This document shows, in pieces, positions 8,959 through 31,501 of a DNA stretch of 45,017 bases; position 1 is the first letter of the stretch, and every line of letters begins with the position of its first letter. The notes beneath the pieces were generated by a model that was not told the origin of the DNA, searched no databases, and worked only from the letters and a program-made list of their open reading frames with translations. The DNA is from a virus (Duplodnaviria > Caudoviricetes): IMG/VR virus record IMGVR_UViG_3300024996_000126, positions 1 to 45,017 of that record, one strand, 5' to 3'. Position numbers and translations under genes: made by a program.

Positions 8959-9310
8959 CGTCGACCTCCACCACGCCGCCCTCGGCGTCCAGCGAGTACC
9001 AGACGTCCGGCTTGATGCCGTCCTGGCCGACGATCACGGCGCGGGCGTGGAGAATGCGGCCGTGATTGGCTTCGTCTCGCCAATCGTTGTGCCGGTAGAC
9101 CAGGAAGAGGGCGGAGCCCTCGGCGCCGCGGGCACGGCACTCGATGCCGGCAGCAGTCGCGGTGGAGAACTTCCCCAGCGCCTGGGCTGCGCCCTGGTCG
9201 CCGCTGGCCTGGGCCGCGCCCTGGTCGCCGCCCGTGCAGGTCAGGGCGTCGGTGAAGCCTTTGTAGGCGGTGATGGTCTCAGGCTTGGCAGCCTGGGGGC
9301 GCTTCGGCAT
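8951..9310 (-). CDS. Phage protein with GDQGAAQAS repeats, apparently internally deleted
   Basis: AYKGF..LTC start, two 9-aa repeats, C-terminal GQDGIKPDVWYSL; GGAG RBS; first gene after PL. Confidence 0.65.
   Translation of the reverse strand: MPKRPQAAKPETITAYKGFTDALTCTGGDQGAAQASGDQGAAQALGKFSTATAAGIECRARGAEGSALFLVYRHNDWRDEANHGRILHARAVIVGQDGIKPDVWYSLDAEGGVVEVDDE
9180..9231. repeat. 27-bp period tandem repeat (2 copies)
   Basis: gcctgggc(t/c)gcgccctggtcgccgc at 9180-9204 and 9207-9231. Confidence 0.85.
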
Positions 9311-9326
9311 GGTGGTCTCCCAAATA

Positions 9327-9396
9327 CAACCCAAATATGAGTTGTTGGGAGAATGCTAAACCCATAAATGGGCTATGTCAACCGCAATTTGGGTTG
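9327..9396. promoter_or_regulatory. Left operator: three 18-bp imperfect palindromes
   Basis: CAACCCAAATATGAGTTG 9327-9344, AAACCCATAAATGGGCTA 9358-9375, CAACCGCAATTTGGGTTG 9379-9396. The first is identical to 13140-13157. Confidence 0.85.
9353..9381 (-). promoter_or_regulatory. PL-type sigma70 promoter
   Basis: Minus strand TTGACA-17 nt-TAGCAT, interleaved with the operators and pointing into the left early operon. Confidence 0.85.
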
Positions 9397-9608
9397 CCTT
9401 GTGAGGCTTCAAGAATTTCGCCAAGCTGGTCCGTGTAGTCCCGAACGGCTTGCAGGGCATCGCCCTGCAGATCTCCGAGGCTCAGGAGAGCGCTTTGTCG
9501 GTCATAGGTGATGAGTCTGACAAGGGCAGCCAGCTTTCGCTGAGAGGCGATGAGCGCCTTAGTATCGCCCACAGGCAATCCACGCACGTCTCCAGTTTCC
9601 ACCACCAT
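9378..9608 (-). CDS. 76-aa protein behind a LexA box; candidate SOS-inducible antirepressor
   Basis: GGAGG RBS before ATG 9608; SOS box about 40 nt upstream. Function inferred from context only. Confidence 0.6.
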   Translation of the reverse strand: MVVETGDVRGLPVGDTKALIASQRKLAALVRLITYDRQSALLSLGDLQGDALQAVRDYTDQLGEILEASQGNPNCG

Positions 9609-9643
9609 AGCTGAGCCCTCCGCCAATTCATTAAGTCAATAAT

Positions 9644-9663
9644 AACTGTGTAAACATCCAGTA
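9644..9663. promoter_or_regulatory. LexA (SOS) box
   Basis: AACTGTGTAAACATCCAGTA matches CTG-N10-CAG (TACTG-(TA)5-CAGTA type); a TATTAT -10-like hexamer follows on the minus strand. Confidence 0.8.
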
Positions 9664-9837
9664 AAAAGCCTTGCGCAACGGGCGGACTCGTGGAATCCAG
9701 GACGGGCGCGGCCTTTGATGGCGAGATTGGGATTTTCCCTACCCGCTTGACGACAAGTCTACGGATCGCTGGGTGTCGATGTGTGAGTGACACAGCCCTT
9801 GGAGGGCCGTGACAGTCGGAAGTCCGCTTTAGCATGC

Positions 9838-9864
9838 TAAAAAGCCGCCCCGAGGGGCGGCTGG
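9838..9864 (-). terminator. Intrinsic terminator after the small hydrophobic peptide gene
   Basis: Minus strand AGCCGCCCC-TC-GGGGCGGCT followed by TTTT. Confidence 0.8.
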
Positions 9865-9870
9865 TTGGGG

Positions 9871-9939
9871 TTAGCAGACTGGGGCTGAATAGGCGGTCAA
9901 CACCACCATCATCAGCACCAGGACGATGGTTTTGATCAT
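9871..9939 (-). CDS. 22-aa hydrophobic peptide MIKTIVLVLMMVVLTAYSAPVC, Ibs-like type I toxin candidate
   Basis: AGGAG RBS 7 nt upstream, single hydrophobic helix, own terminator; below the ORF-track length cutoff. Confidence 0.6.
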   Translation of the reverse strand: MIKTIVLVLMMVVLTAYSAPVC

Positions 9940-10064
9940 GCTGCGCTCCTGTGCCCAGGTTGTTGTGGGCCTGCTGGCTGGGATGACATCAACCCAGTGC
10001 AGATGAGTCACGAACATTCGACGCTACAGGGCTTCAGTGCGTGCGCCTCCTATAATCGGCGACC

Positions 10065-10985
10065 ATGGCAGCAAAGAAACATCAGGGTCGCCGCACCGCG
10101 AAGCGCAGGGCGGCCCCACGCAAGAAGCAGCCGAGCGGCGGCCTCGCAAAATTCCTCAAGACGGTATGTCTATCGGCGGCGGTGTCGTTTGCCGCCATGA
10201 CCTGGGCGCTGCACCCGCAACTGCGGGGTCAGATTGACGTCGACCAGATCCTGGCGCGCCTGAACTTGGATCAGCCAGGGGAGGGCGCAGCCAGCCCACG
10301 GCCGCCCGCGCCCGCGGCACCAGGCGGCTACGTCCAGACGTCCTTCGCGCAGTGCCGCGAGTTCTTCCCGCGCCAGGCGCCGCCCGTCGTGCCGGCTCGG
10401 CCGGCCCAACGCGAACTGTGTTTCTCCTCCTTTGCCATCCTGTACAGTGGCCAGCGGAAAACCCCGGTGCTGGTCGCCGAGCGCCTGAACCGCCAGGCGC
10501 TGATCGCCGCCCAGGGCGTCGCGCGCACCGATAACTTCTACAAGGAGGCGCGGCTGCCGGCGGCCGAGCGGGCCGGGCTGGATGACTACAGGGGATCAGG
10601 CTTTGACCGCGGCCACATGGCGCCAGCCGGCGACATGTCGAATGCCGACGCCATGGCGCAGAGCTTCAGCCTGGTCAACATGGTGCCGCAGGCCCCGCAG
10701 GCGAACCGCGGCGCCTGGAACAAGATCGAGCAGGACACCCGCAAGTACGTGATGCGCGCCAAGGGCGACGTGTATGTGATCTCGGGGCCGGTCTATGGCG
10801 ACCATCCCCAGACAATCGGTGCCGCCAGGGTAGCCGTGCCCGACTACACATTCAAGGCCGTCTATGACGCCACGACGGGCCGTTCCTGGGTACATTGGCT
10901 GGCCAACAGCCCCGACGCCCGGCCCGGCGCGCCGATCAGCTACGAGGAGTTCGTGCGGCGCACGGGGCTGCGAGTGCTGGGGTAG
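10065..10985 (+). CDS. DNA/RNA non-specific endonuclease (beta-beta-alpha-metal, NucA-like) with N-terminal export/anchor segment
   Basis: FDRGHMAPAGD, NMVPQ...NRGAWNKIE; basic N-terminus followed by a hydrophobic stretch; TATAAT at 10051-10056. Confidence 0.92.
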   Translation: MAAKKHQGRRTAKRRAAPRKKQPSGGLAKFLKTVCLSAAVSFAAMTWALHPQLRGQIDVDQILARLNLDQPGEGAASPRPPAPAAPGGYVQTSFAQCREFFPRQAPPVVPARPAQRELCFSSFAILYSGQRKTPVLVAERLNRQALIAAQGVARTDNFYKEARLPAAERAGLDDYRGSGFDRGHMAPAGDMSNADAMAQSFSLVNMVPQAPQANRGAWNKIEQDTRKYVMRAKGDVYVISGPVYGDHPQTIGAARVAVPDYTFKAVYDATTGRSWVHWLANSPDARPGAPISYEEFVRRTGLRVLG

Positions 10986-11034
10986 GGCCTCCAGGCATGA
11001 AGAAGCTCTCCGGGGAGGGCGGTGCTAGCGGTGC

Positions 11035-11526
11035 TTAGTTCGCGCCCGCATTCGGTTCCCAGGTTGGGGCGCGTTCGCCGAAACCGAATTGAGCTGCGAT
11101 GCGTCGCCTGTAAGTGAGCCTGTCCATCTCAACTTCGCAGCCGATGGATGCCTCCACTTCGTCGGTACACACCTGAACCAATCCACGCAAGGCTGTCGGC
11201 TCTCGTGCGCCGATTTCCCGGCGCCGACGCTCCGCTTGTTCCGGGGTTATGGTGCCGTCGGTCATGTCAGCCAAAAGCGCGAGGAAATCCGTAGCCAGCG
11301 ACTCATGCTTCGCGGCCATGCCGGGAAAGTCCAGCACGATGGATAGAATAGTTGCCGCGCCACTAATTAGAGCTACGGAAATACCTGCCCAGCCGGGGAT
11401 GGTCGCCAGAGCGGTGAGAGCCACGATAGACAGAAATTTCGCACCGGCGTCATTCAGGCGGAAAAAATGCTCGCGCTTCTTGTGATAGTTATGTGACACC
11501 CGGACGAGAATTTCTGACTGTGTCAT
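11035..11526 (-). CDS. Two-TM membrane protein, SLATT-like
   Basis: YHKKREHFF..., two hydrophobic helices, then AAKHESLATDFLAL helix; resembles the SLATT architecture. Confidence 0.6.
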   Translation of the reverse strand: MTQSEILVRVSHNYHKKREHFFRLNDAGAKFLSIVALTALATIPGWAGISVALISGAATILSIVLDFPGMAAKHESLATDFLALLADMTDGTITPEQAERRRREIGAREPTALRGLVQVCTDEVEASIGCEVEMDRLTYRRRIAAQFGFGERAPTWEPNAGAN

Positions 11527-11693
11527 CCTTTATCACCTTTCGTTGGCTGTGGTCGCGGTGGCTGGGCGGACTCAATATTCTGAGGCCTTTGGTCCCGAGT
11601 GTAACCGCGCCCGCCGTTTGAAGGCTGCTGCTTTTGGTTCGGCTGTGGCTGCGGTTGTTGCCGGCCCGTGTTCGACGGTTTCCCTGTTGCCAT
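11523..11693 (-). CDS. 56-aa Gln/Pro-rich low-complexity peptide
   Basis: GAGGAGAAGGG RBS; MATGKPSNTGRQQPQPQPNQKQQP...; ATGA-coupled to the SLATT-like gene. Confidence 0.6.
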   Translation of the reverse strand: MATGKPSNTGRQQPQPQPNQKQQPSNGGRGYTRDQRPQNIESAQPPRPQPTKGDKG

Positions 11694-11805
11694 TGTCCCT
11701 TCTCCTCTGTTGAAAATCAATTTTTCACGCCTCCCACGCCAGAAGACGCGGCCCACAGGCTCGGATAAATGCCGTGCATCGTCTTGATGCTGGCCTTGAA
11801 TGCTG

Positions 11806-12078
11806 TCAGTCTTCCATTTCCAGCGTCCGGTATTCTCCGGTGTCGTAGTCGTATACCTCGAGTTCGACGGTGCTCCCCGAGCGCTGGATAGACTCCACTG
11901 ACATGTCGTGGTATTCGCCGGAATCGTAGTCATAGACTTGAATATCGCTGCCAGTACGAACCAGATTGCCGGTTTCGATCTCGACGGCCGCGCCGCTGTC
12001 AGTATCTGCCCCATCCCACGCAAATGCCGGGGTTGCTACAACGCAGCATGTCAGGGCCAGTGCCCGTATAAATGACAT
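11806..12078 (-). CDS. Small secreted acidic protein (DUF5334-like)
   Basis: Signal peptide ending AFA; WDG...EIETGNLVR; two YDYD(S/T)GEY repeats; AAGGAG RBS. Confidence 0.75.
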   Translation of the reverse strand: MSFIRALALTCCVVATPAFAWDGADTDSGAAVEIETGNLVRTGSDIQVYDYDSGEYHDMSVESIQRSGSTVELEVYDYDTGEYRTLEMED

Positions 12079-12128
12079 TCATGGCTCCTTGCTCTATTTG
12101 CAATTCAGGTCGGCGCCAAACGAAATCA

Positions 12129-12266
12129 TCAATGGCAGTGCCTGGTCCCGGTCTTGTGGTTCATGTGGCAGCCGTTTTTGTCGGTGCCGCCACTGTGCGC
12201 CCAGGCCGGTGCTGTTGCGATGACGCCGAAAACGGCCAGGACGGCGGCTGCGATAATCTTTTTCAT
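12129..12266 (-). CDS. 45-aa secreted His/Cys peptide (YHYH-type HSGGTD..GCH...HCH)
   Basis: MKKIIAAAVLAVFGVIATAPAWA|HSGGTDKNGCHMNHKTGTRHCH; GAGGAG RBS; not in the ORF track. Confidence 0.8.
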   Translation of the reverse strand: MKKIIAAAVLAVFGVIATAPAWAHSGGTDKNGCHMNHKTGTRHCH

Positions 12267-12385
12267 GGTTCTCCTCACATATCCACATTAATAATAAGGT
12301 TTTGTTACCTTTGGGTTTAAAGTAACCCCACGTCAGCCGGCACTCAATCGGGGTTTCTCAGAGGTCGAAGCCGCGCTAGAAGGCG

Positions 12386-12574
12386 CTACCTACGAAGCGC
12401 TGGCCACTTTGCAAACGCAAACACCCAAAGGGCGACCAGGTTCACCACCGGAATGAATGCCACGATGACCCAGGCTTTGCTGTACCCGGCTTTTTCCAAA
12501 ATGACTGCTGCCGGGATCCCGATCAGCACGAGATAGCCTACAAGCGAAAACAACATTCCTGAGCCATTCATCAT
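12386..12574 (-). CDS. Small membrane protein
   Basis: ILEKAGYSKAW...FIPVVNLVALWVFAFAKWP; directly downstream of cI. Confidence 0.75.
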   Translation of the reverse strand: MMNGSGMLFSLVGYLVLIGIPAAVILEKAGYSKAWVIVAFIPVVNLVALWVFAFAKWPALRR

Positions 12575-12667
12575 TTGCGGTACCCCCTCAGTGCCCACCG
12601 GGCCTACAGGCCAACCCCACGCCAGCGGCGTGATCTTCATCACTTCGTGTCCACGATCTCACAACAA

Positions 12668-13093
12668 TCACTTCGAGTCTTTTTTCGCGGCGGTTTCAGC
12701 CTCAAACCCCCTAAGCATCACGTCCAGCGCGTCATCCACCTGGCGCAGCTGCGCCGGCGTCAGCGCGCGGATCCGCTCTGCGGTGGATTTTTTTAGGGGC
12801 CAGGGGAGGGGGGTGTCAGTCGATGCCCTAGCCGAGGCTGCCGGCGTGTTTGGCTCAATGCCTGGAACGAAGAGTTGCCATACCTCAAGCCCGAACGCCT
12901 TGGCGATTCCATCCAGTTTGTCGATTGCGATCGCCGAGGCCCCGGCCTTGTCGCCGTTGCGCACACGGTCGTATGTTGACCGCGTGATGCCGTCGGAAGC
13001 GGCGCTGGCGGCTGCGTTGGACGAATAGTGGCCGCCCGGCCCAATCAGCCGGTTCATGTTCTCAGCGAGGATTTTCATAGCGCGGTCGCTCAT
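12668..13093 (-). CDS. CI-like HTH repressor, 141 aa, no S24 peptidase domain
   Basis: ILAENMNRLI...ITRSTYDRV...IDKLDGIAKAFGLEVWQL (XRE-type HTH); divergent from cro across the operators. Confidence 0.8.
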   Translation of the reverse strand: MSDRAMKILAENMNRLIGPGGHYSSNAAASAASDGITRSTYDRVRNGDKAGASAIAIDKLDGIAKAFGLEVWQLFVPGIEPNTPAASARASTDTPLPWPLKKSTAERIRALTPAQLRQVDDALDVMLRGFEAETAAKKDSK

Positions 13094-13116
13094 ATTTGAG
13101 ATGTTCGCAGAATAAA

Positions 13117-13161
13117 TAACCCAAGTGCGGGTTGACTTCCAACCCAAATATGAGTTGAAAT
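13117..13161. promoter_or_regulatory. Right operator (two 18-bp sites) and PR
   Basis: TAACCCAAGTGCGGGTTG 13117-13134, CAACCCAAATATGAGTTG 13140-13157; TTGACT 13132-13137 as -35. Confidence 0.8.
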
Positions 13162-13166
13162 AGGGC

Positions 13167-13388
13167 ATGGACCAAAACCTTGACCTATTCCACGTCGTCC
13201 ATGCCCGCTTGCGGGAGACGAAATACTCCACCTTGCCGGATGTGGCCAGGCATTCCGGGGTGCCTGAAAGCACCCTGAAGAAGATCCGATCCGGCGAGGT
13301 TCGGAACCCCAGAATCAACACTGTCTGGGCACTGTACGAGTACTTCCGCCTGCACCCCCAGCCAGCGGCAGGAGGCGAGCATGTCTAG
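13167..13388 (+). CDS. Cro-like XRE HTH regulator
   Basis: LPDVARHSGVPESTLKKIRSGEVRNPRINTV. Confidence 0.88.
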   Translation: MDQNLDLFHVVHARLRETKYSTLPDVARHSGVPESTLKKIRSGEVRNPRINTVWALYEYFRLHPQPAAGGEHV

Positions 13389-14067
13389 CCGCATCCAACT
13401 CGTCGTGGACATTTCCATGGTTGCCTTCACGCCATTCGGCATCACGCTGATTGTCGAGGGACAGACGCCGGCCACTTTGACCTTCCCGCTGTGCGACGGC
13501 TGGGTGGGGAGTTCGAGTGCATTGCGCCTACTTCGCCAGTGTTTGCATTGCGGCAAGTACGACGGGCCACTGAGCAAGACCGGCGTCGATCAGTTTGTGG
13601 ACAAGATGCTTTGTGGCATCGGCCGGAATTCCGCGAAGCTGATCGAGCCATTTCCGCTTTTCTTCTTCTGGCGCGTCCGACTCCTGGATCCTCGATGCCA
13701 GCATCAGCCGGACCTGATCGTCATGAAGCTTGATCGTCACCACCCCCAGGATGGCCGACAGGCCGCCGTCGTCGGCCAAGAAATCGAGGCCGTGCGCGGT
13801 GATGACTGCCATCCCGCGCCGGTCTTCGAGATATCGCGGAGGCATCAGAGTGATGAGTTGGTGCTCAGCGAGGTATTGCAGATTGGCCTGGAGCCTTTCT
13901 TTTCCGCCTGGAAGATTGCTTTCCGGGTACCTGCTTTCGACAGCCGTCAGGCCCATCGGCTCTGGATAGAGTTCGGCAAGCGCCTGAAGTACGACGCGCT
14001 GAAGGTTTCGGTCCAGCTTCATGTTGTTCGTTCCTTATTCAAAAAAACCGGAGGCGCTCATGTCTGA
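13381..14067 (+). CDS. Putative bridge ORF spanning antisense gene 13528-14022
   Basis: GGAGG RBS and 8-nt overlaps at both ends. It is the codon-aligned shadow of the antisense gene, so the protein may have no function. Confidence 0.35.
   Translation: MSSRIQLVVDISMVAFTPFGITLIVEGQTPATLTFPLCDGWVGSSSALRLLRQCLHCGKYDGPLSKTGVDQFVDKMLCGIGRNSAKLIEPFPLFFFWRVRLLDPRCQHQPDLIVMKLDRHHPQDGRQAAVVGQEIEAVRGDDCHPAPVFEISRRHQSDELVLSEVLQIGLEPFFSAWKIAFRVPAFDSRQAHRLWIEFGKRLKYDALKVSVQLHVVRSLFKKTGGAHV
13528..14022 (-). CDS. Winged-helix-like phage protein, antisense moron
   Basis: MKLDRNLQ..L...ANLQYLAEHQLI...ITAHGLDFLADDGGLSAILGVVTIKLH; TAAGGA RBS. Confidence 0.8.
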   Translation of the reverse strand: MKLDRNLQRVVLQALAELYPEPMGLTAVESRYPESNLPGGKERLQANLQYLAEHQLITLMPPRYLEDRRGMAVITAHGLDFLADDGGLSAILGVVTIKLHDDQVRLMLASRIQESDAPEEEKRKWLDQLRGIPADATKHLVHKLIDAGLAQWPVVLAAMQTLAK

Positions 14068-14173
14068 GCTGACCATCATGCTGATCGCGGCTGTCGCGTT
14101 TGGCGCCGGCTACGTCGTTGGTCACATCCATGCGCTGGTGAGCTACCACAAGCGTAGGGGGCCGCATGCTTGA
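14060..14173 (+). CDS. 37-aa membrane peptide (MSELTIMLIAAVAFGAGYVVG...)
   Basis: GGAGG RBS, hydrophobic core, coupled to the next ORF. Confidence 0.55.
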   Translation: MSELTIMLIAAVAFGAGYVVGHIHALVSYHKRRGPHA

Positions 14174-14354
14174 GTCCAACCTCACCACGCAACCGATCGA
14201 CTCGCAGGAGATTGTGCGACGCCTTGATCGGCTTGAGCAGATCGCTTCCGAGACGATGCGGGCGCTCACGGCGCTCACGACGGTTGTTCAGAATCTTGAT
14301 GCACCAAGGAAGGCTGTGGAGGACTGGAAAGATCCTTGGGCGGGGCGATTCTGA
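14166..14354 (+). CDS. 62-aa coiled-coil hypothetical protein
   Basis: Coupled start; plausible composition. Confidence 0.5.
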   Translation: MLESNLTTQPIDSQEIVRRLDRLEQIASETMRALTALTTVVQNLDAPRKAVEDWKDPWAGRF

Positions 14355-14877
14355 TGGTAGGGAGCACAAGAATATGCGGCTGATAACTAGCCCTTCTGAG
14401 AATGCGGATCGGCGAAGCCGTAAGCAGCTCAGGCAGACACCCCTCACGCAAATTATTGGTGGCCGCTGCATGCCAGTACGCCGTCGCCACGGCGTGTGTG
14501 CTGGATATGAAGTGGTTCTCGTCAATCGTCTTGAGCGTATCGAAGTCACCCATGCATTGAGGGGCCTCGGGATCGGTGATCTCAACGTTATAAATGCATG
14601 GAGAAAGGACTTCTGTAGCCAATTCCTGGCCTCCATGCAGCGCGGCTGCGGTGCTGGTGAAAAGGAAATTGCAGTGCAGTCGGCTGGGGAGGTGAGGCGC
14701 AGTAAAGAAACGCACCTGATCGAAAATCAGTTCTCGGACCACGGGCCATCCATTTCTGCCCTGCGTTGGGTTTTGGCCAAGGATGTTCTTGCCGAAATTC
14801 CCGGGCTCAATGATGGAGCCCGGGGCGAGCAGCATGGGCGAGACGTAAAGCAGTTCTTGCGGCGCGCTGGCGGTCAT
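14275..14877 (-). CDS. DUF2441-like (ART-like fold) protein, antisense moron
   Basis: RELIFDQVR....PHLPSRLHCNFLF...IYNVEI, YW, ELL; GGAGAG RBS; TAGAAT -10 upstream. Confidence 0.65.
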   Translation of the reverse strand: MTASAPQELLYVSPMLLAPGSIIEPGNFGKNILGQNPTQGRNGWPVVRELIFDQVRFFTAPHLPSRLHCNFLFTSTAAALHGGQELATEVLSPCIYNVEITDPEAPQCMGDFDTLKTIDENHFISSTHAVATAYWHAAATNNLREGCLPELLTASPIRILRRASYQPHILVLPTIRIAPPKDLSSPPQPSLVHQDSEQPS

Positions 14878-15285
14878 GATGTTTTTCTCTCCATAGAGTT
14901 CTTGGGTACATCAGATTCTACGGACCTGGAGCCGGCCACCCAACCCCAACACCCCTGGAAGCCGGACCCTGCTGACGACCGCGTGCCTATTGGCCCCGGC
15001 GACGTCATCACGTCAGTGCACCGTCACGGCACCGTCGGCCGGCAGCCCGTGCTGCCAGCACCAGGCCAGCCGTTCGAAAACCGCCTCGATGTGGCTGGCG
15101 TCGGCGTAGTCACCAAAGGCCTGCAGCGCCAGGCGCTCGGCTTCATCCATCAATTCGTGTCGTGTGTCGGCATCCATGGCGGCAGTGTCGCCGCGGCCGC
15201 AATGCGCGTCCATTCGTACTTCCCGTCCCTGTCATTTCTGTCACGGCGCCATTGTGCTGGTGCCTGGAGCCACTGTCATGCGTAG
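14374..15285 (+). CDS. Putative bridge ORF spanning two antisense genes
   Basis: GGGAG RBS before ATG 14374; stays open across the spacer between the two genes; stop overlaps the CII-like ATG. Codon-aligned shadow, so protein function is doubtful. Confidence 0.25.
   Translation: MRLITSPSENADRRSRKQLRQTPLTQIIGGRCMPVRRRHGVCAGYEVVLVNRLERIEVTHALRGLGIGDLNVINAWRKDFCSQFLASMQRGCGAGEKEIAVQSAGEVRRSKETHLIENQFSDHGPSISALRWVLAKDVLAEIPGLNDGARGEQHGRDVKQFLRRAGGHDVFLSIEFLGTSDSTDLEPATQPQHPWKPDPADDRVPIGPGDVITSVHRHGTVGRQPVLPAPGQPFENRLDVAGVGVVTKGLQRQALGFIHQFVSCVGIHGGSVAAAAMRVHSYFPSLSFLSRRHCAGAWSHCHA
15013..15177 (-). CDS. 54-aa hypothetical protein (MDADTRHELMDEAERLA...)
   Basis: Plausible helical small phage protein just upstream of and antisense to the CII-like gene. 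Confidence 0.55.
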   Translation of the reverse strand: MDADTRHELMDEAERLALQAFGDYADASHIEAVFERLAWCWQHGLPADGAVTVH

Positions 15286-15847
15286 TCTGTCGCAGACCCT
15301 GATCGGAATCCTCCGCGAGGAGATCGCCGAATACCGCCGCGCGCACCGCCTGTCGCGCGAGACCGTCGCCGCGGCTGTCGTCGAGGCCCACGAGGCCCTG
15401 GGCGCCGACGCGTCAACCGGCATCCGGTTCGAGCCCAAGACGCTCGACGCCTTCGAGCGCACCAAGGTCAACGCTGACCGCGTCTTTCGCTGGCTCGACG
15501 ACAGCACGAAGGACGCCAACCTGCTGCCAGCGAACTTCCTGGTGTCGCTGCTGGCCGGCCTGCCAGACGACGTCCGGCGGCGCGCGCTCGATCGCATCCT
15601 GCTGCCGCTGGGCTTTGCCGCCCGGGCTCTCGGTGAAGAGCAGGGCAGCGCGCCGGTGTCGGCCGGCGGTGTCGCCGCCCTCATCCGTGAGCAGAGCGAA
15701 GCCGCGGCCGCTGCCACCAGCCTGCTGGGTGAGCACGGCCCGGCCGCCCTGGCCGACGCCCGCCGCGAAGTCGCTGAGGCCGTGGACATGGGCCAACGCG
15801 TTCTGGAGCAGATCGAAGCGCAGATGGCGGCGGAGGCGAGGGGATGA
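15278..15847 (+). CDS. CII-like phage regulatory protein
   Basis: Position between cro and replication genes; NADRVFRWLDD..KDANLLPANF; GGAG RBS. Confidence 0.6.
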   Translation: MRSLSQTLIGILREEIAEYRRAHRLSRETVAAAVVEAHEALGADASTGIRFEPKTLDAFERTKVNADRVFRWLDDSTKDANLLPANFLVSLLAGLPDDVRRRALDRILLPLGFAARALGEEQGSAPVSAGGVAALIREQSEAAAAATSLLGEHGPAALADARREVAEAVDMGQRVLEQIEAQMAAEARG

Positions 15848-16122
15848 CTACTCGGCCCCCCGTGATTCGAGCAGATGACGCACTTCGGCGCGCGCCTCCT
15901 CCATTGCAACGTCCCTGGTGGGTGCATATTCCTCGCAATTTTTGTACCCCTTCCCGGGCACAGAAACGTACCAAGACCAATGCCTCGTGCCGATGCGCTG
16001 GAGCTGAATGTGGCGGTCGAGTTCTTCGTTCTGAATGCTCATTTTTGAGTCCGTTTTCAAGGTTTGACGTCCTCAAAATATCGCGTCACGACCGGATTCT
16101 TGCAAGCGGGGGAGTGGTATGA
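15844..16122 (+). CDS. Putative bridge ORF over antisense gene 15848-16042
   Basis: ATGA overlaps at both ends; not codon-aligned with the antisense gene. Confidence 0.35.
   Translation: MTTRPPVIRADDALRRAPPPLQRPWWVHIPRNFCTPSRAQKRTKTNASCRCAGAECGGRVLRSECSFLSPFSRFDVLKISRHDRILASGGVV
15848..16042 (-). CDS. 64-aa hypothetical protein, antisense moron
   Basis: MSIQNEELDRHIQLQRIGTRHWSWYVSV...TRDVAMEEARAEV; AT-richer sequence. Confidence 0.55.
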   Translation of the reverse strand: MSIQNEELDRHIQLQRIGTRHWSWYVSVPGKGYKNCEEYAPTRDVAMEEARAEVRHLLESRGAE

Positions 16123-16712
16123 AGTGGACCGAACGTACCATCGCCGCGGCCCTCGCCCAGCAGACCTTCAACCGCAAGTACCTGGTCGTGGTCCCCAACT
16201 GCAACTGGACGGGCTACGAGGCCGACATCCTAGCCGTCACCGAGAACCTGCGGCTGATCGACGTCGAGATCAAGATCAGCCGCGCCGACCTGCGGGCCGA
16301 CGCCCGGAAGGACAAGTGGTGGCGCCACGAGAATGTCGGGTCACCGCTTCGCCTAGAAGACTTCGACGCCAGCGGCCGGCTCGTCCGCCGCCGACACGCA
16401 TACGCCCAGCAGTTCGAGCTGCGCACGTGGCCGCGCCGGGTCTGGAAGCACTACTACGCGCTGCCCGCCGAGATCTGGACCGATGACTTGCTGCCCGCCC
16501 TGGGCTCCGAGGCCTCCGGCGTCCTGCTGCTCAGCGATACCGGGCACGGACTGCAAATCCGCTGCAGGCGGCCGGCCAAGCCGTGCCGTGACGCCGAGAA
16601 GATCAGCCCGGCTGCCGCCGTCCATGTCGCCCGTCTGGCCAGCCTGCGCATGTGGGACGCCTATCAGAAGCTCGACGGGCTGGTCGCAAAGAATGAGGCG
16701 GTGACCGCATGA
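16119..16712 (+). CDS. MmcB-like PD-(D/E)xK nuclease-fold protein
   Basis: EADILAV...DVEIKISRADLRADARKDKW, YYALP. Confidence 0.75.
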   Translation: MKWTERTIAAALAQQTFNRKYLVVVPNCNWTGYEADILAVTENLRLIDVEIKISRADLRADARKDKWWRHENVGSPLRLEDFDASGRLVRRRHAYAQQFELRTWPRRVWKHYYALPAEIWTDDLLPALGSEASGVLLLSDTGHGLQIRCRRPAKPCRDAEKISPAAAVHVARLASLRMWDAYQKLDGLVAKNEAVTA

Positions 16713-17905
16713 CAGGCCTACCTGACCCCCTGACGCCCGCCGACTGCAACCTGCGCGGCATGCCATTCATGCCGTTGGACACAGAGCGGCTCCTGGACAG
16801 CGACATGATGGCGCTGTCCACCGGCGAGGAATTCAAGACGGCGTTGCGCTTGTGGTGCAAGTCCTGGAATCAGGAGCCCGCCGCCTCGCTGCCTGACGAC
16901 GATCGCATTCTGGCGCACCTGGCCGGCAAGGAGCCGGCGGCGTGGCGCAAGGTCAAGGACGTGGCGCTGCGCGGCTTCATCAAGTGCGGCGACGGGCGTC
17001 TGTACCACCCCGTCATCGCCGAGAAGGCACTGGAGGCCTGGGGCGCACGCGAGGCTTTCCAGGCCAAGAAAGAGGGCGACAACGACCGCAAGAAAGAGGA
17101 ACGCGAAGACCGCCGGATGCTGTTCGCCGCCCTGCGTGACATCGGCGTGATCCTGCCGGCGAAAGGCACTCCCACATCGCACCTGCGCAAGGTCGCGGCG
17201 TCACACGGAATCCAGATAGTCGTCACGGAGGGTCACAAGGTTGTCACTGTGACACCAGGCGGAAGTCACAAGGAAAGTCACAGCGGTGTCACGGCTAAGA
17301 CAGGGACAGGGACAGGGACAGTAAAAGAAAAGGGAGCGGCGGCGGCACCTCCCCCGCGTGCGTACGTACCTGCGCCCGCGCACGAGGACCCGCCGCCCGC
17401 CGCGCCGCCTGGCATCCCGGAAGTCCCTGTCGAACCCCAGGAGCCGCCGGCGACGATCCCCGACGAAGCACCCCGGCGAGCCACGCAGATCGCCGTGCTG
17501 CTGCGCCGCAACGGCGCCGATCCCCGGACCTTGCCCAACGACCGGCGTATCGCTGACTGGGCGCGGGACGGCGTAGCCGACGCCGAGGTGCTGCTGGCCC
17601 TGGAAACCGCGAAGGAGCGCCGCAAGGCTCAGGGCAGCGACCAGCCCATCGGCACCGCCTACCTGGCGCCGATCATCGCCGACCTGCGGGCTGCGCCGCC
17701 GGAGACTGGGGCCAGCAAGCCTGCCGCCGCATCCAAGCCCTGGCCCTGCAGCTGGTCGGGAATCGTGGCTAAGGGCGCTGAGTTGGGGCTGGCCCAGGGA
17801 GTGGACGAGCTGGCGCCGGAATTCAAAGTCCGCGTTTTTGCCGCCGCGGACCTGACCGACGACGAGCGTTCCCGGCTGCGCGCCGACTACGGGGTGAGCG
17901 TATGA
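16709..17905 (+). CDS. Replication initiator (DUF1376/YdaU-like, lambda O analogue)
   Basis: FMPLDTERLLDSD...LWCKSW.Q.PAASLPDDDRILA...GRLYHP; internal iterons. Confidence 0.85.
   Translation: MTGLPDPLTPADCNLRGMPFMPLDTERLLDSDMMALSTGEEFKTALRLWCKSWNQEPAASLPDDDRILAHLAGKEPAAWRKVKDVALRGFIKCGDGRLYHPVIAEKALEAWGAREAFQAKKEGDNDRKKEEREDRRMLFAALRDIGVILPAKGTPTSHLRKVAASHGIQIVVTEGHKVVTVTPGGSHKESHSGVTAKTGTGTGTVKEKGAAAAPPPRAYVPAPAHEDPPPAAPPGIPEVPVEPQEPPATIPDEAPRRATQIAVLLRRNGADPRTLPNDRRIADWARDGVADAEVLLALETAKERRKAQGSDQPIGTAYLAPIIADLRAAPPETGASKPAAASKPWPCSWSGIVAKGAELGLAQGVDELAPEFKVRVFAAADLTDDERSRLRADYGVSV
17200..17335. repeat. Iteron array / probable origin of replication
   Basis: GTCAC at 17200, 17222, 17232, 17243, 17265, 17277, 17288 plus inverted GTGAC at 17249; then (GACAGG)3 and an A-rich tract. 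Confidence 0.75.
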
Positions 17906-18153
17906 CCCCCACACCCGTCCAATGCATCAACTGCACGCGCTTCAGTCTGCGCGGCCACACCGGCATGGCCAGCCAAGGCTACGGCCAATGCGCGCTGGCC
18001 GCCGGCGCCGGGCACTTCGAAAGCGCCGTCTTCCAGCGCCACTGCGCGGACTTCGAAGCGGTGGCGGCTGACGTCGCCGAGCGCCGCCGGCAGTGGCTCG
18101 ACGCCAAGCAAAAAACCTTTCACGAAGCCATCGAACGGAGCAAAGCACCATGA
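17902..18153 (+). CDS. Small Cys-containing hypothetical protein
   Basis: CINC...GQC...RHC..F; ATGA coupling. Confidence 0.7.
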   Translation: MTPTPVQCINCTRFSLRGHTGMASQGYGQCALAAGAGHFESAVFQRHCADFEAVAADVAERRRQWLDAKQKTFHEAIERSKAP

Positions 18154-18680
18154 CTTTTCATGACCAACCGACGAGCATGCAAGACCTGGCGTTCCCGCGC
18201 GCCGGGCAGGGCAGGGGTGATACCGGGGCGATACCCCGGGCGGCCGGCACGGTCCAGTTCTTCGTCCCCGGCAAGCCCCAGGGCAAGGGCCGGCCCCGCG
18301 CCGTCGCCCGCGGCAAGTTCGTGCGCATGTACACGCCGGAGAAGACGGCCAGCTACGAGTCCACGGTCGCGCTGGCAGCCAGCCAGGCCATGGCAGGCCG
18401 CCCGCCCATCGAAGGCCCCGTGGTGGCCACCCTGTTCATCGCGCTGCCCATCCCGACGTCCTGGTCGAAGAAGAAGCAGGCCCAGGCCCTGGCCGACGAG
18501 CTGCTGCCCATCACGAAACCGGATTCGGATAACGTCGTGAAAGCCGTGTTCGACGCCATCAACGGCGTGGTGTGGGCCGACGACACCCAGGTGGTCGATC
18601 ACACGGCGAAGAAGCGCTACCGGGGCCGGCCCGGTGTCTCGGTCACGATTTCGCCGATCAACGCCCAGGAGGCCCGCTGA
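18150..18680 (+). CDS. rusA: RusA-family Holliday junction resolvase
   Basis: PQGKGRPR, TKPDSDNVVKAVFDAINGVVWADDTQVV. Confidence 0.92.
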   Translation: MTFHDQPTSMQDLAFPRAGQGRGDTGAIPRAAGTVQFFVPGKPQGKGRPRAVARGKFVRMYTPEKTASYESTVALAASQAMAGRPPIEGPVVATLFIALPIPTSWSKKKQAQALADELLPITKPDSDNVVKAVFDAINGVVWADDTQVVDHTAKKRYRGRPGVSVTISPINAQEAR

Positions 18681-19057
18681 TGCCCTACACCCCAGCCCAG
18701 CGCCAGGCCCTGAACGAGGCCAAATCCCGCATCGCTGTCGCCCTGACCGCCGCCGGCGTGCCCAGCATGTTCTGCGACACCATGGCGGACCTGCGCACCC
18801 GGGCGCGGCGCGTCTTCGGGCCGCCTCTGAACGGCGAGACGAACACCGAATACTTCAACCGCGTGGCCGACCTGAAGCCGCGGGCGAAGGCCGCGACCAC
18901 CGGCCAGGTTGTGGTGCCGAGGGTCAACCAGCCGCTGAGGATCCGGCCGTGGCGGCCGACGCCGCATCTGAGGGCGGCAGAAATCGATGCGCTGCCGACG
19001 CCGGTCAGCATGAGCGGGCGGGTGAAGTCGTACGTTGGGTTCGAGGAGCGGAAGTGA
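18680..19057 (+). CDS. Hypothetical protein
   Basis: TGATG coupling; AGGAGG RBS. Confidence 0.65.
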   Translation: MPYTPAQRQALNEAKSRIAVALTAAGVPSMFCDTMADLRTRARRVFGPPLNGETNTEYFNRVADLKPRAKAATTGQVVVPRVNQPLRIRPWRPTPHLRAAEIDALPTPVSMSGRVKSYVGFEERK

Positions 19058-19059
19058 CG

Positions 19060-19425
19060 ATGGAAGATCGCCCGCTGAGCGGACACGACCTGCTGTGGAA
19101 CTGGGCGCGCTGGTGCTGGACTGGCGAGACGCCGGGCAACATGCAGCGCTACGTGCCGCAGGAAGACGATCACCGGCCCATCATGGTCGATCACGCCCTG
19201 GCCGTGCAGGCCTTGTACGAACGCCTGCCGCGGCACCAGGCCATGGTGATCCAGGCCGAGTACACACGGAAGAACAGCTGGTTCGGACAACTGTCGGCTG
19301 ACGGCCGGCGCACGATGGCCAGGCGCTGGATCCAGGAAGTGACGGGTGCCGTGCTGCGCCAGGAGGATTACACGCGGCTGCTGGAGGTGTTCCAGATGAA
19401 GGTGGAGAAGGAGATTTGGCGGTGA
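19060..19425 (+). CDS. Late antiterminator Q-like protein
   Basis: LLWNWARW start, HALAVQALYERLP...VIQAEY; position at the end of the early operon. Confidence 0.6.
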   Translation: MEDRPLSGHDLLWNWARWCWTGETPGNMQRYVPQEDDHRPIMVDHALAVQALYERLPRHQAMVIQAEYTRKNSWFGQLSADGRRTMARRWIQEVTGAVLRQEDYTRLLEVFQMKVEKEIWR

Positions 19426-19703
19426 AGTATGCGAACGAAGTGATCGAGCTGATGGAGGCCTACCCGATGCGCTCGTTTAGAGTAGGGGAGCTCGTCAGGC
19501 ACGTCACGAAAGGGCGGCCGTTGACCGTTCCGCAGAAGGCTGCCGCACGGAAGGCCGTAAAGCGGGTGATGGACGCGCTCGTTGAGCATGATGCGGTGTT
19601 GCTGGTGCGGGCTGCGGAGGTGTCCGGGGCTGCTGCTGAGTACTCCGTGTCTCGCTTGCGGGACATCGGGTCTGGAAAAGCGGGACAGAAAGCGAGACAA
19701 TAG
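19422..19703 (+). CDS. Small winged-helix-like protein
   Basis: KYANEVIELMEAYPMRSFRVGELVRHV...AVKRVMDAL; GTGA coupling. Confidence 0.65.
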   Translation: MKYANEVIELMEAYPMRSFRVGELVRHVTKGRPLTVPQKAAARKAVKRVMDALVEHDAVLLVRAAEVSGAAAEYSVSRLRDIGSGKAGQKARQ

Positions 19704-19727
19704 CGGTGGGCAAGTTGCGCCCTGAAC

Positions 19728-19763
19728 AAAAGAATCCCCGCTCACGGCGGGGATGTTTCATTT
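19728..19763. terminator. Probable bidirectional terminator (tR'-like)
   Basis: AAAAGA-ATCCCCGC-TCACG-GCGGGGAT-GTTTCATTT between converging genes. Confidence 0.7.
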
Positions 19764-19975
19764 CAGGGTTTCTCTTTAGCGTCTCCATACGGAGACTGGT
19801 TGGTTGGCTTTAGTGAGACACCTTCGTCCGATGCCTTGGCATAAATCGCGTCTTCTGTTCTGCCCAGCTTTAGGCCAATTACTCGTGTAGGAGTATTTTC
19901 CTTGGCGAGGCTCTTCAGCGCTTTGACATCATCAGACGTCCAGCGCTTTCCTGAATTGCGTGTGCTTTTGGTCAT
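19763..19975 (-). CDS. 70-aa Myb/HTH-like small protein, antisense moron
   Basis: RNSGKRWTSDDVKALKSLAKENTPTRVIGLKLGRTEDAIYAKAS; GGGAG RBS. Confidence 0.75.
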   Translation of the reverse strand: MTKSTRNSGKRWTSDDVKALKSLAKENTPTRVIGLKLGRTEDAIYAKASDEGVSLKPTNQSPYGDAKEKP

Positions 19976-20160
19976 ATAGTCTCCCTGGTAAATCGCTGGT
20001 GTAGGAACTAGTAACATACCACCACCCCACCCAGTTGTCTCCTCATCAGCCGCCGCTGCTTTTCGCGCCCCACTGAGCCGAGAGATTCGCGGGGCGCATG
20101 AATGTGGCATAGTTAACCTTCCAGCCGTCAGTTAACCGGCGTGACTAAAAAGGAGGGGTA

Positions 20161-20457
20161 ATGGTAAAGATAGTTTCAGCCGCTGAGGGAGACGCGAACG
20201 CTATGATGCGCGACAACGTAGATTTGCCGGACGTCGAAATAAAAGGCGATCAGGTTGTTGTGCGCTTTCGAAGCTTGTCGCCATTCAATCAAGCGGTCAA
20301 GGAGCACAGGGTTGAGTTCTCCTTCGCAAGCTTGATCGATAAGGGGATGATTCGACTCTTACAGGAATACTCCAAAGAGGATGCAATCAAGCAAAAGGAT
20401 GCTCTGGTTAGCGCGCTGAAAAATGCCGCCGAGAAAGTTGGCTCGTTAGAGCTGTAA
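20161..20457 (+). CDS. 98-aa hypothetical moron protein
   Basis: AAGGAGG RBS, AT-richer, own terminator. Confidence 0.7.
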   Translation: MVKIVSAAEGDANAMMRDNVDLPDVEIKGDQVVVRFRSLSPFNQAVKEHRVEFSFASLIDKGMIRLLQEYSKEDAIKQKDALVSALKNAAEKVGSLEL

Positions 20458-20473
20458 GTCGATAGAAAAATAC

Positions 20474-20498
20474 AGCCGCCTTCGGGCGGTTTTTTATT
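20474..20498 (+). terminator. Intrinsic terminator
   Basis: GCCGCC-TTCG-GGCGGT followed by TTTTTATT. Confidence 0.85.
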
Positions 20499-20501
20499 GC
20501 C

Positions 20502-30331: not shown

Positions 30332-30356
30332 GCCGCCTTCGGGTGGCTTTTCATTT
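30332..30356 (+). terminator. Intrinsic terminator-like hairpin before the tail tube gene
   Basis: GCCGCC-TTCG-GGTGGC-TTTTCATTT. Confidence 0.7.
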
Positions 30357-30368
30357 GGAGGCCATGAC

Positions 30369-31100
30369 ATGGCTATTTGCAAAAGCACGAAATACGTTGG
30401 CCGCGACGTGGTCCTGGAATACGCCATTGGCTGCGGCGACGCCCGACCTGTCGAGGCCGACTGGAAGCGCTTCGGCTCGATGCGCACCAAGGAATTCAAC
30501 CTGGAATGGGAAACCACCGATGCGACGGCTGACGACTCCATCGGCGCGCTGCGCGAGAATTTGGCCACGTTCCAGTCCCTCACGATCTCGGGCGACGGCA
30601 CCTGCAAGGCCAGCGGCGCCGGATCTGCGAACCTGATCGAACTGACGAAGCACGTCGCCAATCCGGCGGCGACCGGCGGCCAGCCCACCGCCTGGCTGCG
30701 CATGACGTTTCCCGATCTGACCTTCACGGCTTTCATGATCATCACGACCATGAGCCGGTCGGCGCCGTTCGACGACGTGACGACCTACAGCATGGAAGCC
30801 AGCGCCACGGCGTCGGACTTCGGCCTGATCGTGGAAGACACGCCGGCGCCGGTCACGATCACGAGCGTCACGGTGACGCCCAGCACGCTGGCGATGGTCG
30901 AGGGCGATCTGGATGCGCTGACCGCTGCCGTGGTGCCCAGCACCAGCCCCGAGGTGAAATGGACGTCCAGTGATGCGCTGGTTGCGACTGTGGACAGTCA
31001 CGGTCACGTCGAGGCGGTGGGCGCTGGCACGGCGACGATCACCGCCACCAGCGCCTATGACGCCACGAAATCGGGCAGTTGCGCGGTGACGGTAAGCTAG
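30369..31100 (+). CDS. Major tail tube protein with C-terminal Ig-like (Big_2) domain
   Basis: DATADDS, RSAPFDDVTTYS; C-terminal VTVTP...VKWTSSD..VATVD..G.V.AVGAGTATITAT. Confidence 0.9.
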   Translation: MAICKSTKYVGRDVVLEYAIGCGDARPVEADWKRFGSMRTKEFNLEWETTDATADDSIGALRENLATFQSLTISGDGTCKASGAGSANLIELTKHVANPAATGGQPTAWLRMTFPDLTFTAFMIITTMSRSAPFDDVTTYSMEASATASDFGLIVEDTPAPVTITSVTVTPSTLAMVEGDLDALTAAVVPSTSPEVKWTSSDALVATVDSHGHVEAVGAGTATITATSAYDATKSGSCAVTVS

Positions 31101-31501
31101 GGCTTACGGGGCTGGTCCGCGACAGGGCCGCCGGCGTCGGTTGCAAGACCGGTGCTGGTGCCCGTTTGGCTCGATGACGAGGTGTATCGGGACAGGATGT
31201 CTTGGTGGTCAAACATCATCATGACCATGTTTGATCTGGTGTCGGCCCCGCCGACGAAGGCTCCAACGATTGGAATAAACGTCGAGGGGCGGGCGCGGGA
31301 CTCAACGTAGCTGTACATCAGTGTCGTGGTGCCGTCCATGTTGCGCATAGTCGTCGTGGGCTGGCCCAGGGCGGCGATTACCTCCTGCTTCGTCGTCTGG
31401 CCTTCGTGAAATTGGGAAAGCTGGTCGTCAGAGACTTTGACGCCCGATGACGCGCAGCCGGCAAGAGCCAAGGCTGCCGCGAGTGCTGCGATTTTCTTCA
31501 T
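31097..31501 (-). CDS. Outer-membrane lipoprotein, BamE/SmpA-like domain; antisense moron
   Basis: Lipobox LAGC; GQTTKQEVIAALGQP; AGGAG RBS. Confidence 0.85.
   Translation of the reverse strand: MKKIAALAAALALAGCASSGVKVSDDQLSQFHEGQTTKQEVIAALGQPTTTMRNMDGTTTLMYSYVESRARPSTFIPIVGAFVGGADTRSNMVMMMFDHQDILSRYTSSSSQTGTSTGLATDAGGPVADQPRKP

Follow-up and report, generated by a model that had tools for sequence, protein, structure and literature searches.

Rho terminates untranslated and antisense transcription (PMC12360218), and several systems carry RNA polymerase past it. N and Q protect the early and late genes of lambdoid phages, and ribosomes on upstream open reading frames (uORFs) can mask Rho utilization (Rut) sites (PMC12360218, PMC10695390). 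Lambda N/nut, HK022 put and P4 Psu all secure the passage of polymerase through a phage operon despite Rho (PMC12360218, PMC10695390), and at the uORFs and leader peptides tnaC, speFL and cruR a ribosome on the open reading frame (ORF) keeps Rho off, so that the downstream genes are transcribed (PMC12360218). Open frames on opposite strands have also been described: Culex narnavirus 1 keeps a long opposite-strand ORF open, and its translation may be its function (PMC8316113), and in olg1/gene 10 of Pseudomonas phage Fc02 a lysogeny-strand gene overlaps an early lytic gene (PMC9936078). The present analysis concerns the right early (PR) operon of an integrated lambdoid DNA prophage in genome G000 (G000:C10); the window is the whole analysed stretch of 45,017 nucleotides (nt), IMG/VR record IMGVR_UViG_3300024996_000126. 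Four genes in this operon (a1 to a4) run backwards, and the sense strand across them is filled by relays of overlapping ORFs. Comparison with related phages indicates that the relays are real and selected, and from it we infer their function; in early operons they are very probably under selection for being translated.

The + strand chain of the window runs from a cro-like gene through bridge b1, a small membrane-type gene, a 62-aa gene, a nine-codon linker, bridge b2, a CII-like gene and bridge b3 into an MmcB-like gene (Table 1), with overlaps of 1–10 nt throughout and all four antisense genes crossed; every link named in a first-pass annotation, which was made from the letters alone, is present. 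If ATG and GTG starts are allowed, the gap-free chain reaches 19703, and one branch reaches 19890. The ribosome-binding sites (RBSs) claimed for b1 and b2 are also there, as GGAGG at the b1 start and as a weaker, more distant GGAG, in addition to stop–start coupling, at that of b2. As had been stated, b2 stays open over the spacer at 14878–15012 and b3 is not codon-aligned with a4; b1 and b2 are codon-aligned shadows in one frame. The claim that a2 is covered holds for the bridging itself but not for its attribution to b2 alone, since the 3′ 99 nt of a2 (14275–14373) lie under the 62-aa gene and the linker. The late antisense genes at 31097–31501 and 41403–43289 have no bridge, again as reported, and neither does a third at 19763–20110, beyond the terminator that closes the early chain; these three carry 3, 14 and 7 stop-making codons, that is, Leu and Ser codons (TTA, CTA, TCA) that place a stop in the shadow frame.

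The first-pass annotation had cautioned that codon-aligned shadows are often open by chance in GC-rich DNA, and the host genome bears this out: stop-free shadows of 165 codons occur in 15 of 61 gene blocks at a third-position GC content (GC3) of 0.6 and in 67 of 199 at 0.7 (25–34%, a baseline that rests on a crude gene filter). Bridge b3 is open in 31% of synonymous shuffles, and ATGA junctions and 8-nt overlaps are general in this operon. All of this would fit an account in which GC-rich genes simply have open shadows and phage junctions supply the overlapping starts and stops. The window alone does not put the chain above chance; its relatives clearly do.

The relatives that carry this point are those of a1, which has 790 homologue clusters and a modelled structure (predicted local distance difference test score, pLDDT, 79) with MarR/PadR-type winged helix-turn-helix (HTH) fold matches at Z 10–12. 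The sample comprised the best 80 of 309 viral loci, the best 80 of 251 metagenome loci and genome hits; 173 loci were examined, 165 had the whole gene and 111 were kept below 80% identity. Context was called by profile matches to cI, cro and CII in the flanking DNA, independently of the feature counted, which gave 48 early loci (47 relatives and the window) and 63 others. A single frame is open over the whole of a1 in 6 of the 111, and a single-ORF bridge was rejected as a family rule. What is conserved is a relay of two ORFs, and the earlier picture of a single bridge over all of a1 gives way to it. The first link, ORF1, has an RBS and begins where cro stops; the second is a shadow ORF that runs from an ATG, the reverse complement of the CAT codon for a1 His100, to beyond the a1 start. 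His100 is encoded by CAT in 36 of 45 early-context relatives, compared with 62 of 197 other His codons (p 3e-9), and no such bias exists in other contexts. The ORF1 stop lies 11 nt past the start of the His100 ATG in 27 of 47 relatives and 10 nt ahead of the ATG in 8 more.

When coupled starts are followed from cro, a1 is crossed in 15 of 29 cro-bearing loci, against 3.6 expected with synonymous a1 codons shuffled; without three loci that are open under every shuffle, the count is 12 of 26 against 0.6. Stops across the same antisense genes in related phages, which the first-pass annotation had taken as a sign against its reading, are common in any single frame, but the coupled chain crosses a1 more often than the shuffles predict. 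In the comparison that it proposed, openness came out above the shuffled-codon null and end coupling above control frames. The first shadow-frame stop beyond the a1 start is coupled to an RBS-bearing start in 21 of 47 loci (window included), compared with 4 and 7 in control frames. A dinucleotide-shuffle test from cro to CII (10/24 against 0.5) was set aside, as its null destroys real sense genes. Four loci (L063–L066) differ in their cro–CII DNA, yet all have long coupled ORFs that end at the CII start.

Coupled ends could also mean that a relay serves translational coupling, passing ribosomes on to the gene that follows, with termination beside the point; apart from the excess over control frames, 22 of 38 open relatives have an ATG within −14 to +3 of the stop that ends the relay, and all links in the window overlap. 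This account is unlikely, because most downstream genes have a strong RBS of their own, late genes need translation too and yet have no relays, and 9 of the 38 open relatives keep the frame open with no start codon at the relay stop, which favours ribosome cover over ribosome delivery.

Openness is concentrated in the N-part of a1 (its N-terminal two thirds), where the shadow is stop-free in 39 of 48 early loci (window included) versus 11.8 expected, and in 11 of 63 other loci versus 8.1. Below 55% identity, 19 of 22 early loci are open (6.6 expected), compared with 5 of 33 in other contexts (4.2 expected). Stop-making codons, counted directly, without shuffling, at GC3 above 0.45, make up 17 of 644 (2.6%) Leu and Ser codons in the N-part of early relatives and 108 of 799 (13.5%) elsewhere (p 1e-14); for the cI genes at these loci the count is 99 of 532. 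A-ending control codons are nearly as frequent in early relatives (15.8%) as in the others (19.6%), and the C-part of a1 shows no difference. Within-gene shuffles could read an excess in the C-part as a deficit in the N-part; by direct count, stop-making codons in the C-part are no commoner than in other contexts. Four-fold degenerate sites in the N-part are saturated (31–37% identity, the same as controls), as are first positions of the shadow, so the openness is explained neither by common descent nor by protein function. As in a neutral shadow, the product appears to be free of amino-acid constraint; the rate of stop-making codons that GC3 would set for a neutral shadow is not observed, the two rates above being taken at matched GC3. 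That chance produced the relays is extremely unlikely, given that one gene family in one orientation has opposite outcomes by operon at matched GC3, that the depletion is confined to the N-part of a1 and present in each GC3 bin, and that a quick a1 tree intersperses early with other contexts, with 24 changes, of which at least 8 are forced.

The clearest contrast is with late operons. When 43 of the 71 ORFs in the flanks of the "other" loci were compared with PHROGs, eight a1 loci were found antisense to tail or lysis genes, to which L157 was added for its layout, which is that of L228. The N-part shadow is stop-free in 38 of 47 early relatives and in none of these nine copies (p 6e-6) at nearly equal GC3 (0.60 and 0.58), and ORF1 is kept in four of the nine with the shadow closed. 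Among homologues of the late gene at 31097–31501 the shadow is closed in 10 of 10, of which two are clearly in the same tail position. These comparisons support selection on the a1 relay frames to stay open, in the early-operon context only and without amino-acid constraint. They also bear on the possibility that ribosome traffic guards the early mRNA from decay or from pairing with cargo antisense RNA (through RNase III or E), or strips the duplex. The sense and cargo transcripts must overlap fully, and translation has been proposed to protect RNA in ambigrammatic narnaviruses (PMC8316113); protection from decay is nonetheless quite improbable here, since late transcripts meet the same duplexes and nucleases without bridges, in the nine a1 copies as in the ten homologues, and the known difference between the operons, Q, acts on termination. 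The late-operon contrast thus favours termination over decay.

ORF1 is a different kind of link. It runs about 65 codons into a1 in a frame that is not codon-aligned, and its entering frame is identical in 36 of 37 early relatives that have such an ORF. Its N-half, outside a1, aligns over 26 sequences, and a1 four-fold identity under ORF1 is raised (0.47–0.72 against 0.34–0.58 by identity bin). By sequence criteria, namely conservation in and outside the overlap, an RBS-bearing start and constrained a1 wobble sites, ORF1 is a real protein, and its AlphaFold model (pLDDT 87, six strands and one helix) portrays it as a folded protein overprinted on the 3′ third of a1. A profile search found 228 clusters at 50% identity and a word-based search 27; there was no Pfam match, a best PHROG match at E 0.035, no usable Atlas match and a best fold match at Z 4.0, misses that do not show a new fold. 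The protein of L064 (4236–4574, −) and its 25 aligned relatives have 100–135 aa, with a β-sheet and a helix, and accompany a1 into late operons too; ORF1 is a candidate partner of a1, antitoxin-like or a regulator.

In the window, ORF1 is not intact. It is split over two frames, with the switch within 13482–13509 (ORF1 of L081 matches both frames, E 2e-26), and a contig of run X1, possibly from the same source DNA, agrees at every base. The frameshift cost the product of ORF1 and was likely tolerated because the shadow frame is open throughout, a suggestion drawn from one case.

All bridges might then be ordinary overlapping protein genes whose products are their function, as holds for ORF1 (conserved N-half, raised four-fold identity, a confident model, many clusters), as the conserved motif in b2 described below would allow, and as in Fc02, where both antiparallel genes act in exclusion (PMC9936078). 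For the shadows this is very unlikely. Their first positions are saturated; ORF1 persists in late copies of a1 in which the shadow is closed; b2-like ORFs have unrelated N-termini of 12–148 codons before the motif; and b2 itself differs between alleles of a2. In an a2 allele from runs X8, X10 and X11 (one study), for which 13 of 20 differences were listed, all seven listed changes under b2 are silent for a2, five alter b2 and none creates a stop; both changes in the spacer are silent for b2.

Relays recur over the other antisense genes. The a2 relay is found again in L255 and L263; in L263, whose a2 homologue is 35% identical, the shadow ORF starts on the upstream stop and ends on the next RBS-bearing start, and in G289 a 99.5% identical a2 stands between a different cro and a CII of a different family with the chain complete. 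No relative of a2 was found in viral contigs. The last ~35 codons of a2 (14275–14382), which overlap a sense gene, are absent from the 165-aa L263 homologue and are probably an extension.

In a3, differences from L004 fall at codon positions 1, 2 and 3 in the ratio 4/6/18, which marks a3 as the strand under protein selection, and its shadow is open up to the CII start in five of eight relatives. A promoter-like site at the CII start, where lambda has P_RE, lies upstream of a3, which may thus belong to the establishment phase and not to the lysogen cargo.

Over a4, all three relatives keep the equivalent non-aligned frame open, at least two of them at a different insertion site; the frame is either coupled at each end or entered by readthrough from the gene before it. 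Because shuffles keep the frame open in 20, 25 and 68% of cases, the conservation of this relay is modest evidence. Searches of 400 genomes from the order and of annotated phages did not find a4; two weak matches (L266, L267) were unrelated long ORFs and were dropped. Upstream of a4, a short palindrome-like element (16080–16092) shared by the window, L068, L253 and L254 resembles the iteron core and is a possible operator or promoter.

Among the sequence evidence, translation of the b2 frame is best supported by a Pro-rich peptide motif within it, over which no minus-strand gene lies. At least 19 distinct DNA versions were listed, with amino acids kept and third positions free, either in an ORF of 17–18 aa with an RBS or 12–148 codons into relays with unrelated N-termini. 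The motif could be a stalling or pausing peptide, although exact RAPP, RGPP and RAGP are absent. The first-pass reading of the bridges needs correction at this part of b2, where the peptide itself is conserved. The motif lies upstream of a3 and CII in the window, L039, L043–L045, L134 and L163.

On these grounds we consider it fairly probable that the relays serve as ribosome cover against Rho polarity in an early operon without a recognisable N. Ribosomes would reinitiate at each overlap and run across the backwards gene, keeping Rho off several hundred otherwise naked bases of the nascent PR transcript; over a1, cover would normally come from ORF1 for the first third and from a junk shadow for the remainder. 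In late operons, Q-type antitermination would make such a relay unnecessary, and in the window a Q-like candidate stands ahead of the late region that has no bridges. The host encodes Rho. As the first-pass annotation had found, no N-like antiterminator is recognisable: there is no PF11438 (N36) match in G000 and no PHROG match on the small ORFs of the left arm (a divergent N could escape both), no boxA-like heptamer in 9000–20500 and no hairpin-T in 13167–19760 other than the closing terminator. Psu gave no match, in a search that matched no control genome either. It is proposed that the lysogen expresses the cargo genes and that PR transcription silences them.

Several observations weigh against this reading. 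Stops interrupt the a1 relay in 9 of 47 early-context relatives; in nine loci ~90–120 nt before the next gene stay uncovered; and the a3 shadow is broken in three of eight homologues, all of one genus. If restarts at any ATG or GTG are permitted, the largest gap in shuffled sequences has a median of only ~25 nt. By the usual rule, such gaps are too short for Rho, so the reading requires that reinitiation be inefficient where ORFs do not overlap. Several of the nine late-context phages are kin. The C content of bridged stretches is not markedly above that of late antisense ones, nor does C/G skew single out the bridged ones, and a divergent N or a put-like RNA is a candidate for the same role. 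The earlier proposal that ribosome cover replaces N-type antitermination is accordingly upheld in part: the frames appear to be selected to stay open, in early operons only, and no N was found, while the early relatives with stops do not conform. A wider proposition is offered tentatively, as doubtful at present: that early antitermination in temperate phages lacking N is achieved by translation itself, so that a backwards insert must become a two-strand cassette with a relay ORF, which may later be overprinted into a real protein (ORF1) or bear a Pro-rich stalling peptide that sets the amount of polymerase arriving at CII. Relays would then be both a rule of phage genome design and a cradle of new overlapping genes.

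Table 1. Features of the early operon in the window, with strand and the basis of each assignment.
Feature	Position	Strand	Basis or remark
cI-like repressor gene	12668–13093	−	Divergent from cro; position; homologues equally placed in L004, L062–L066
cro-like HTH gene, first chain link	13167–13388	+	phrog_9425, E 2.5e-13
Bridge b1	13381–14067	+	N-terminal ~40 codons of ORF1, frame switch, then codon-aligned a1 shadow; end overlaps 14060 ATG; no Pfam or PHROG match
ORF1 C-terminal part, still open in the relatives' frame	13482–13733	+	TGA at 13731–13733 overlaps handover ATG at 13723
a1 (cargo), 164 aa, winged-helix N-domain and helical C-domain	13528–14022	−	PHROG (phrog_3983); model
Handover ATG, reverse complement of a1 His100 CAT	13723–13725	+	In relatives, the shadow relay begins here
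Small membrane-type gene, 37 aa	14060–14173	+	RBS and coupling; similar post-cro ORF in L004
62-aa gene overlapping the a2 3′ tail	14166–14354	+	Copy 89% identical in L255
a2 (cargo), DUF2441-like	14275–14877	−	Weak PF10386 and phrog_5663 matches
Linker ORF, 9 codons	14354–14383	+	Linker also present in L255
Bridge b2	14374–15285	+	a2 shadow, spacer with Pro-rich motif, a3 shadow; end overlaps CII ATG; no Pfam or PHROG match
Pro-rich peptide motif in b2	14949–15005	+
a3, 54 aa, conserved, just upstream of CII	15013–15177	−	8 homologues; no Shine–Dalgarno sequence at its ATG
Promoter-like site at CII start, pointing into a3	15251–15279	−	Weak: consensus scan, 1 found and 1.2 expected
CII-like activator, ATG at 15278	15278–15847	+	phrog_163, E 1e-12
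Bridge b3	15844–16122	+	ATGA-coupled at both ends; equal frame open in relatives; no Pfam or PHROG match
a4 (cargo), 64 aa	15848–16042	−	Own RBS; absent in L005, where the MmcB-like gene directly follows CII
MmcB-like gene	16119–16712	+	Pfam/PHROG; chain continues via replication, RusA and Q-like genes to 19703
Candidate Q-type late antiterminator	19060–19425	+	Atlas score 0.91 to antiterminator Q cluster, rank 10; no PHROG match
Terminator-like hairpin-T, bidirectional	19734–19754		Closes the gap-free early chain

By Pfam and PHROG matches, the prophage encodes an integrase, RecT, cro-like and CII-like proteins, replication proteins and RusA, and its CII has its closest named relatives in Castellaniella. 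Eight iteron-like GTCAC/GTGAC repeats lie within the replication gene (17200–17292). Downstream of the Q-like candidate, the late region holds several intrinsic terminator-like sites, namely the closing terminator and those at 20474–20491 and 30332–30347. Of the late antisense genes, 41403–43289 (−) is an AT3-SGNH O-antigen acetylase-like moron (phrog_6705) and 31097–31501 (−) a BamE-like lipoprotein moron in the tail region, with a weak Cor match. To the left of cI, 10065–12643 holds a cargo cluster with a non-specific endonuclease (PF01223), DUF5334 and small secreted and membrane proteins, parts of which are common to L242 and L089. PADLOC returned nothing meaningful, and Rfam no match; no RNA run was found to contain this DNA.

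If the relays act as proposed, they would explain how backwards accessory genes can sit in the middle of the lysis–lysogeny operon of lambdoid phages without a recognisable N, and they would constitute a class of ORFs selected for being translated and not for their product. They would offer a birth route for overlapping genes and a design rule for payloads in phage operons, with the warning that annotation drops such ORFs as shadows. An old question, whether long antisense ORFs in bacteria are selected, and for what, becomes testable, with a built-in control in one family that is bridged early and unbridged late.

Polarity and coupling as such are textbook matter, and shadow ORFs are known from GC-rich genomes. 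The relays resemble the latter in that two of the three bridges are codon-aligned; they differ in an openness about five-fold beyond GC-matched controls of the same family (in codon terms), in coupled ends and in a favoured start codon. From N/nut, put and Psu they differ as a proposed cis-encoded ribosome cover, which would leave intrinsic terminators active; a scan of the early operon revealed no such terminator. The tnaC, speFL and cruR ORFs are short and ligand-sensing, and their peptide sequence matters (PMC12360218), whereas the relays span 90–300 codons on the back of another gene, are seemingly constitutive and are free in sequence except for stops; the shadows lack the conserved signal-sensing peptide of a uORF attenuator, a role that the Pro-rich motif might fill. 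The narnavirus reverse ORF belongs to a eukaryotic RNA virus and spans a whole segment (that of the RNA-dependent RNA polymerase), with no operon or Rho (PMC8316113), whereas the relays belong to a DNA prophage, depend on the operon and are coupled to their neighbours. The Fc02 pair is a model for ORF1 and a1; both its products are active, the passages of its source that describe it give no relay or polarity role, and the shadow relays, by contrast, are without protein constraint (PMC9936078). No description of relays across antisense phage genes was found by full-text searches of the main text of openly accessible articles. The relays thus belong neither to uORF shielding, although they would work like it, nor to the narnavirus type of reverse ORF, and the locus adds to these systems an early/late contrast within one gene family, a two-step relay with an overprinted protein, a natural frameshift and a conserved peptide within a relay.

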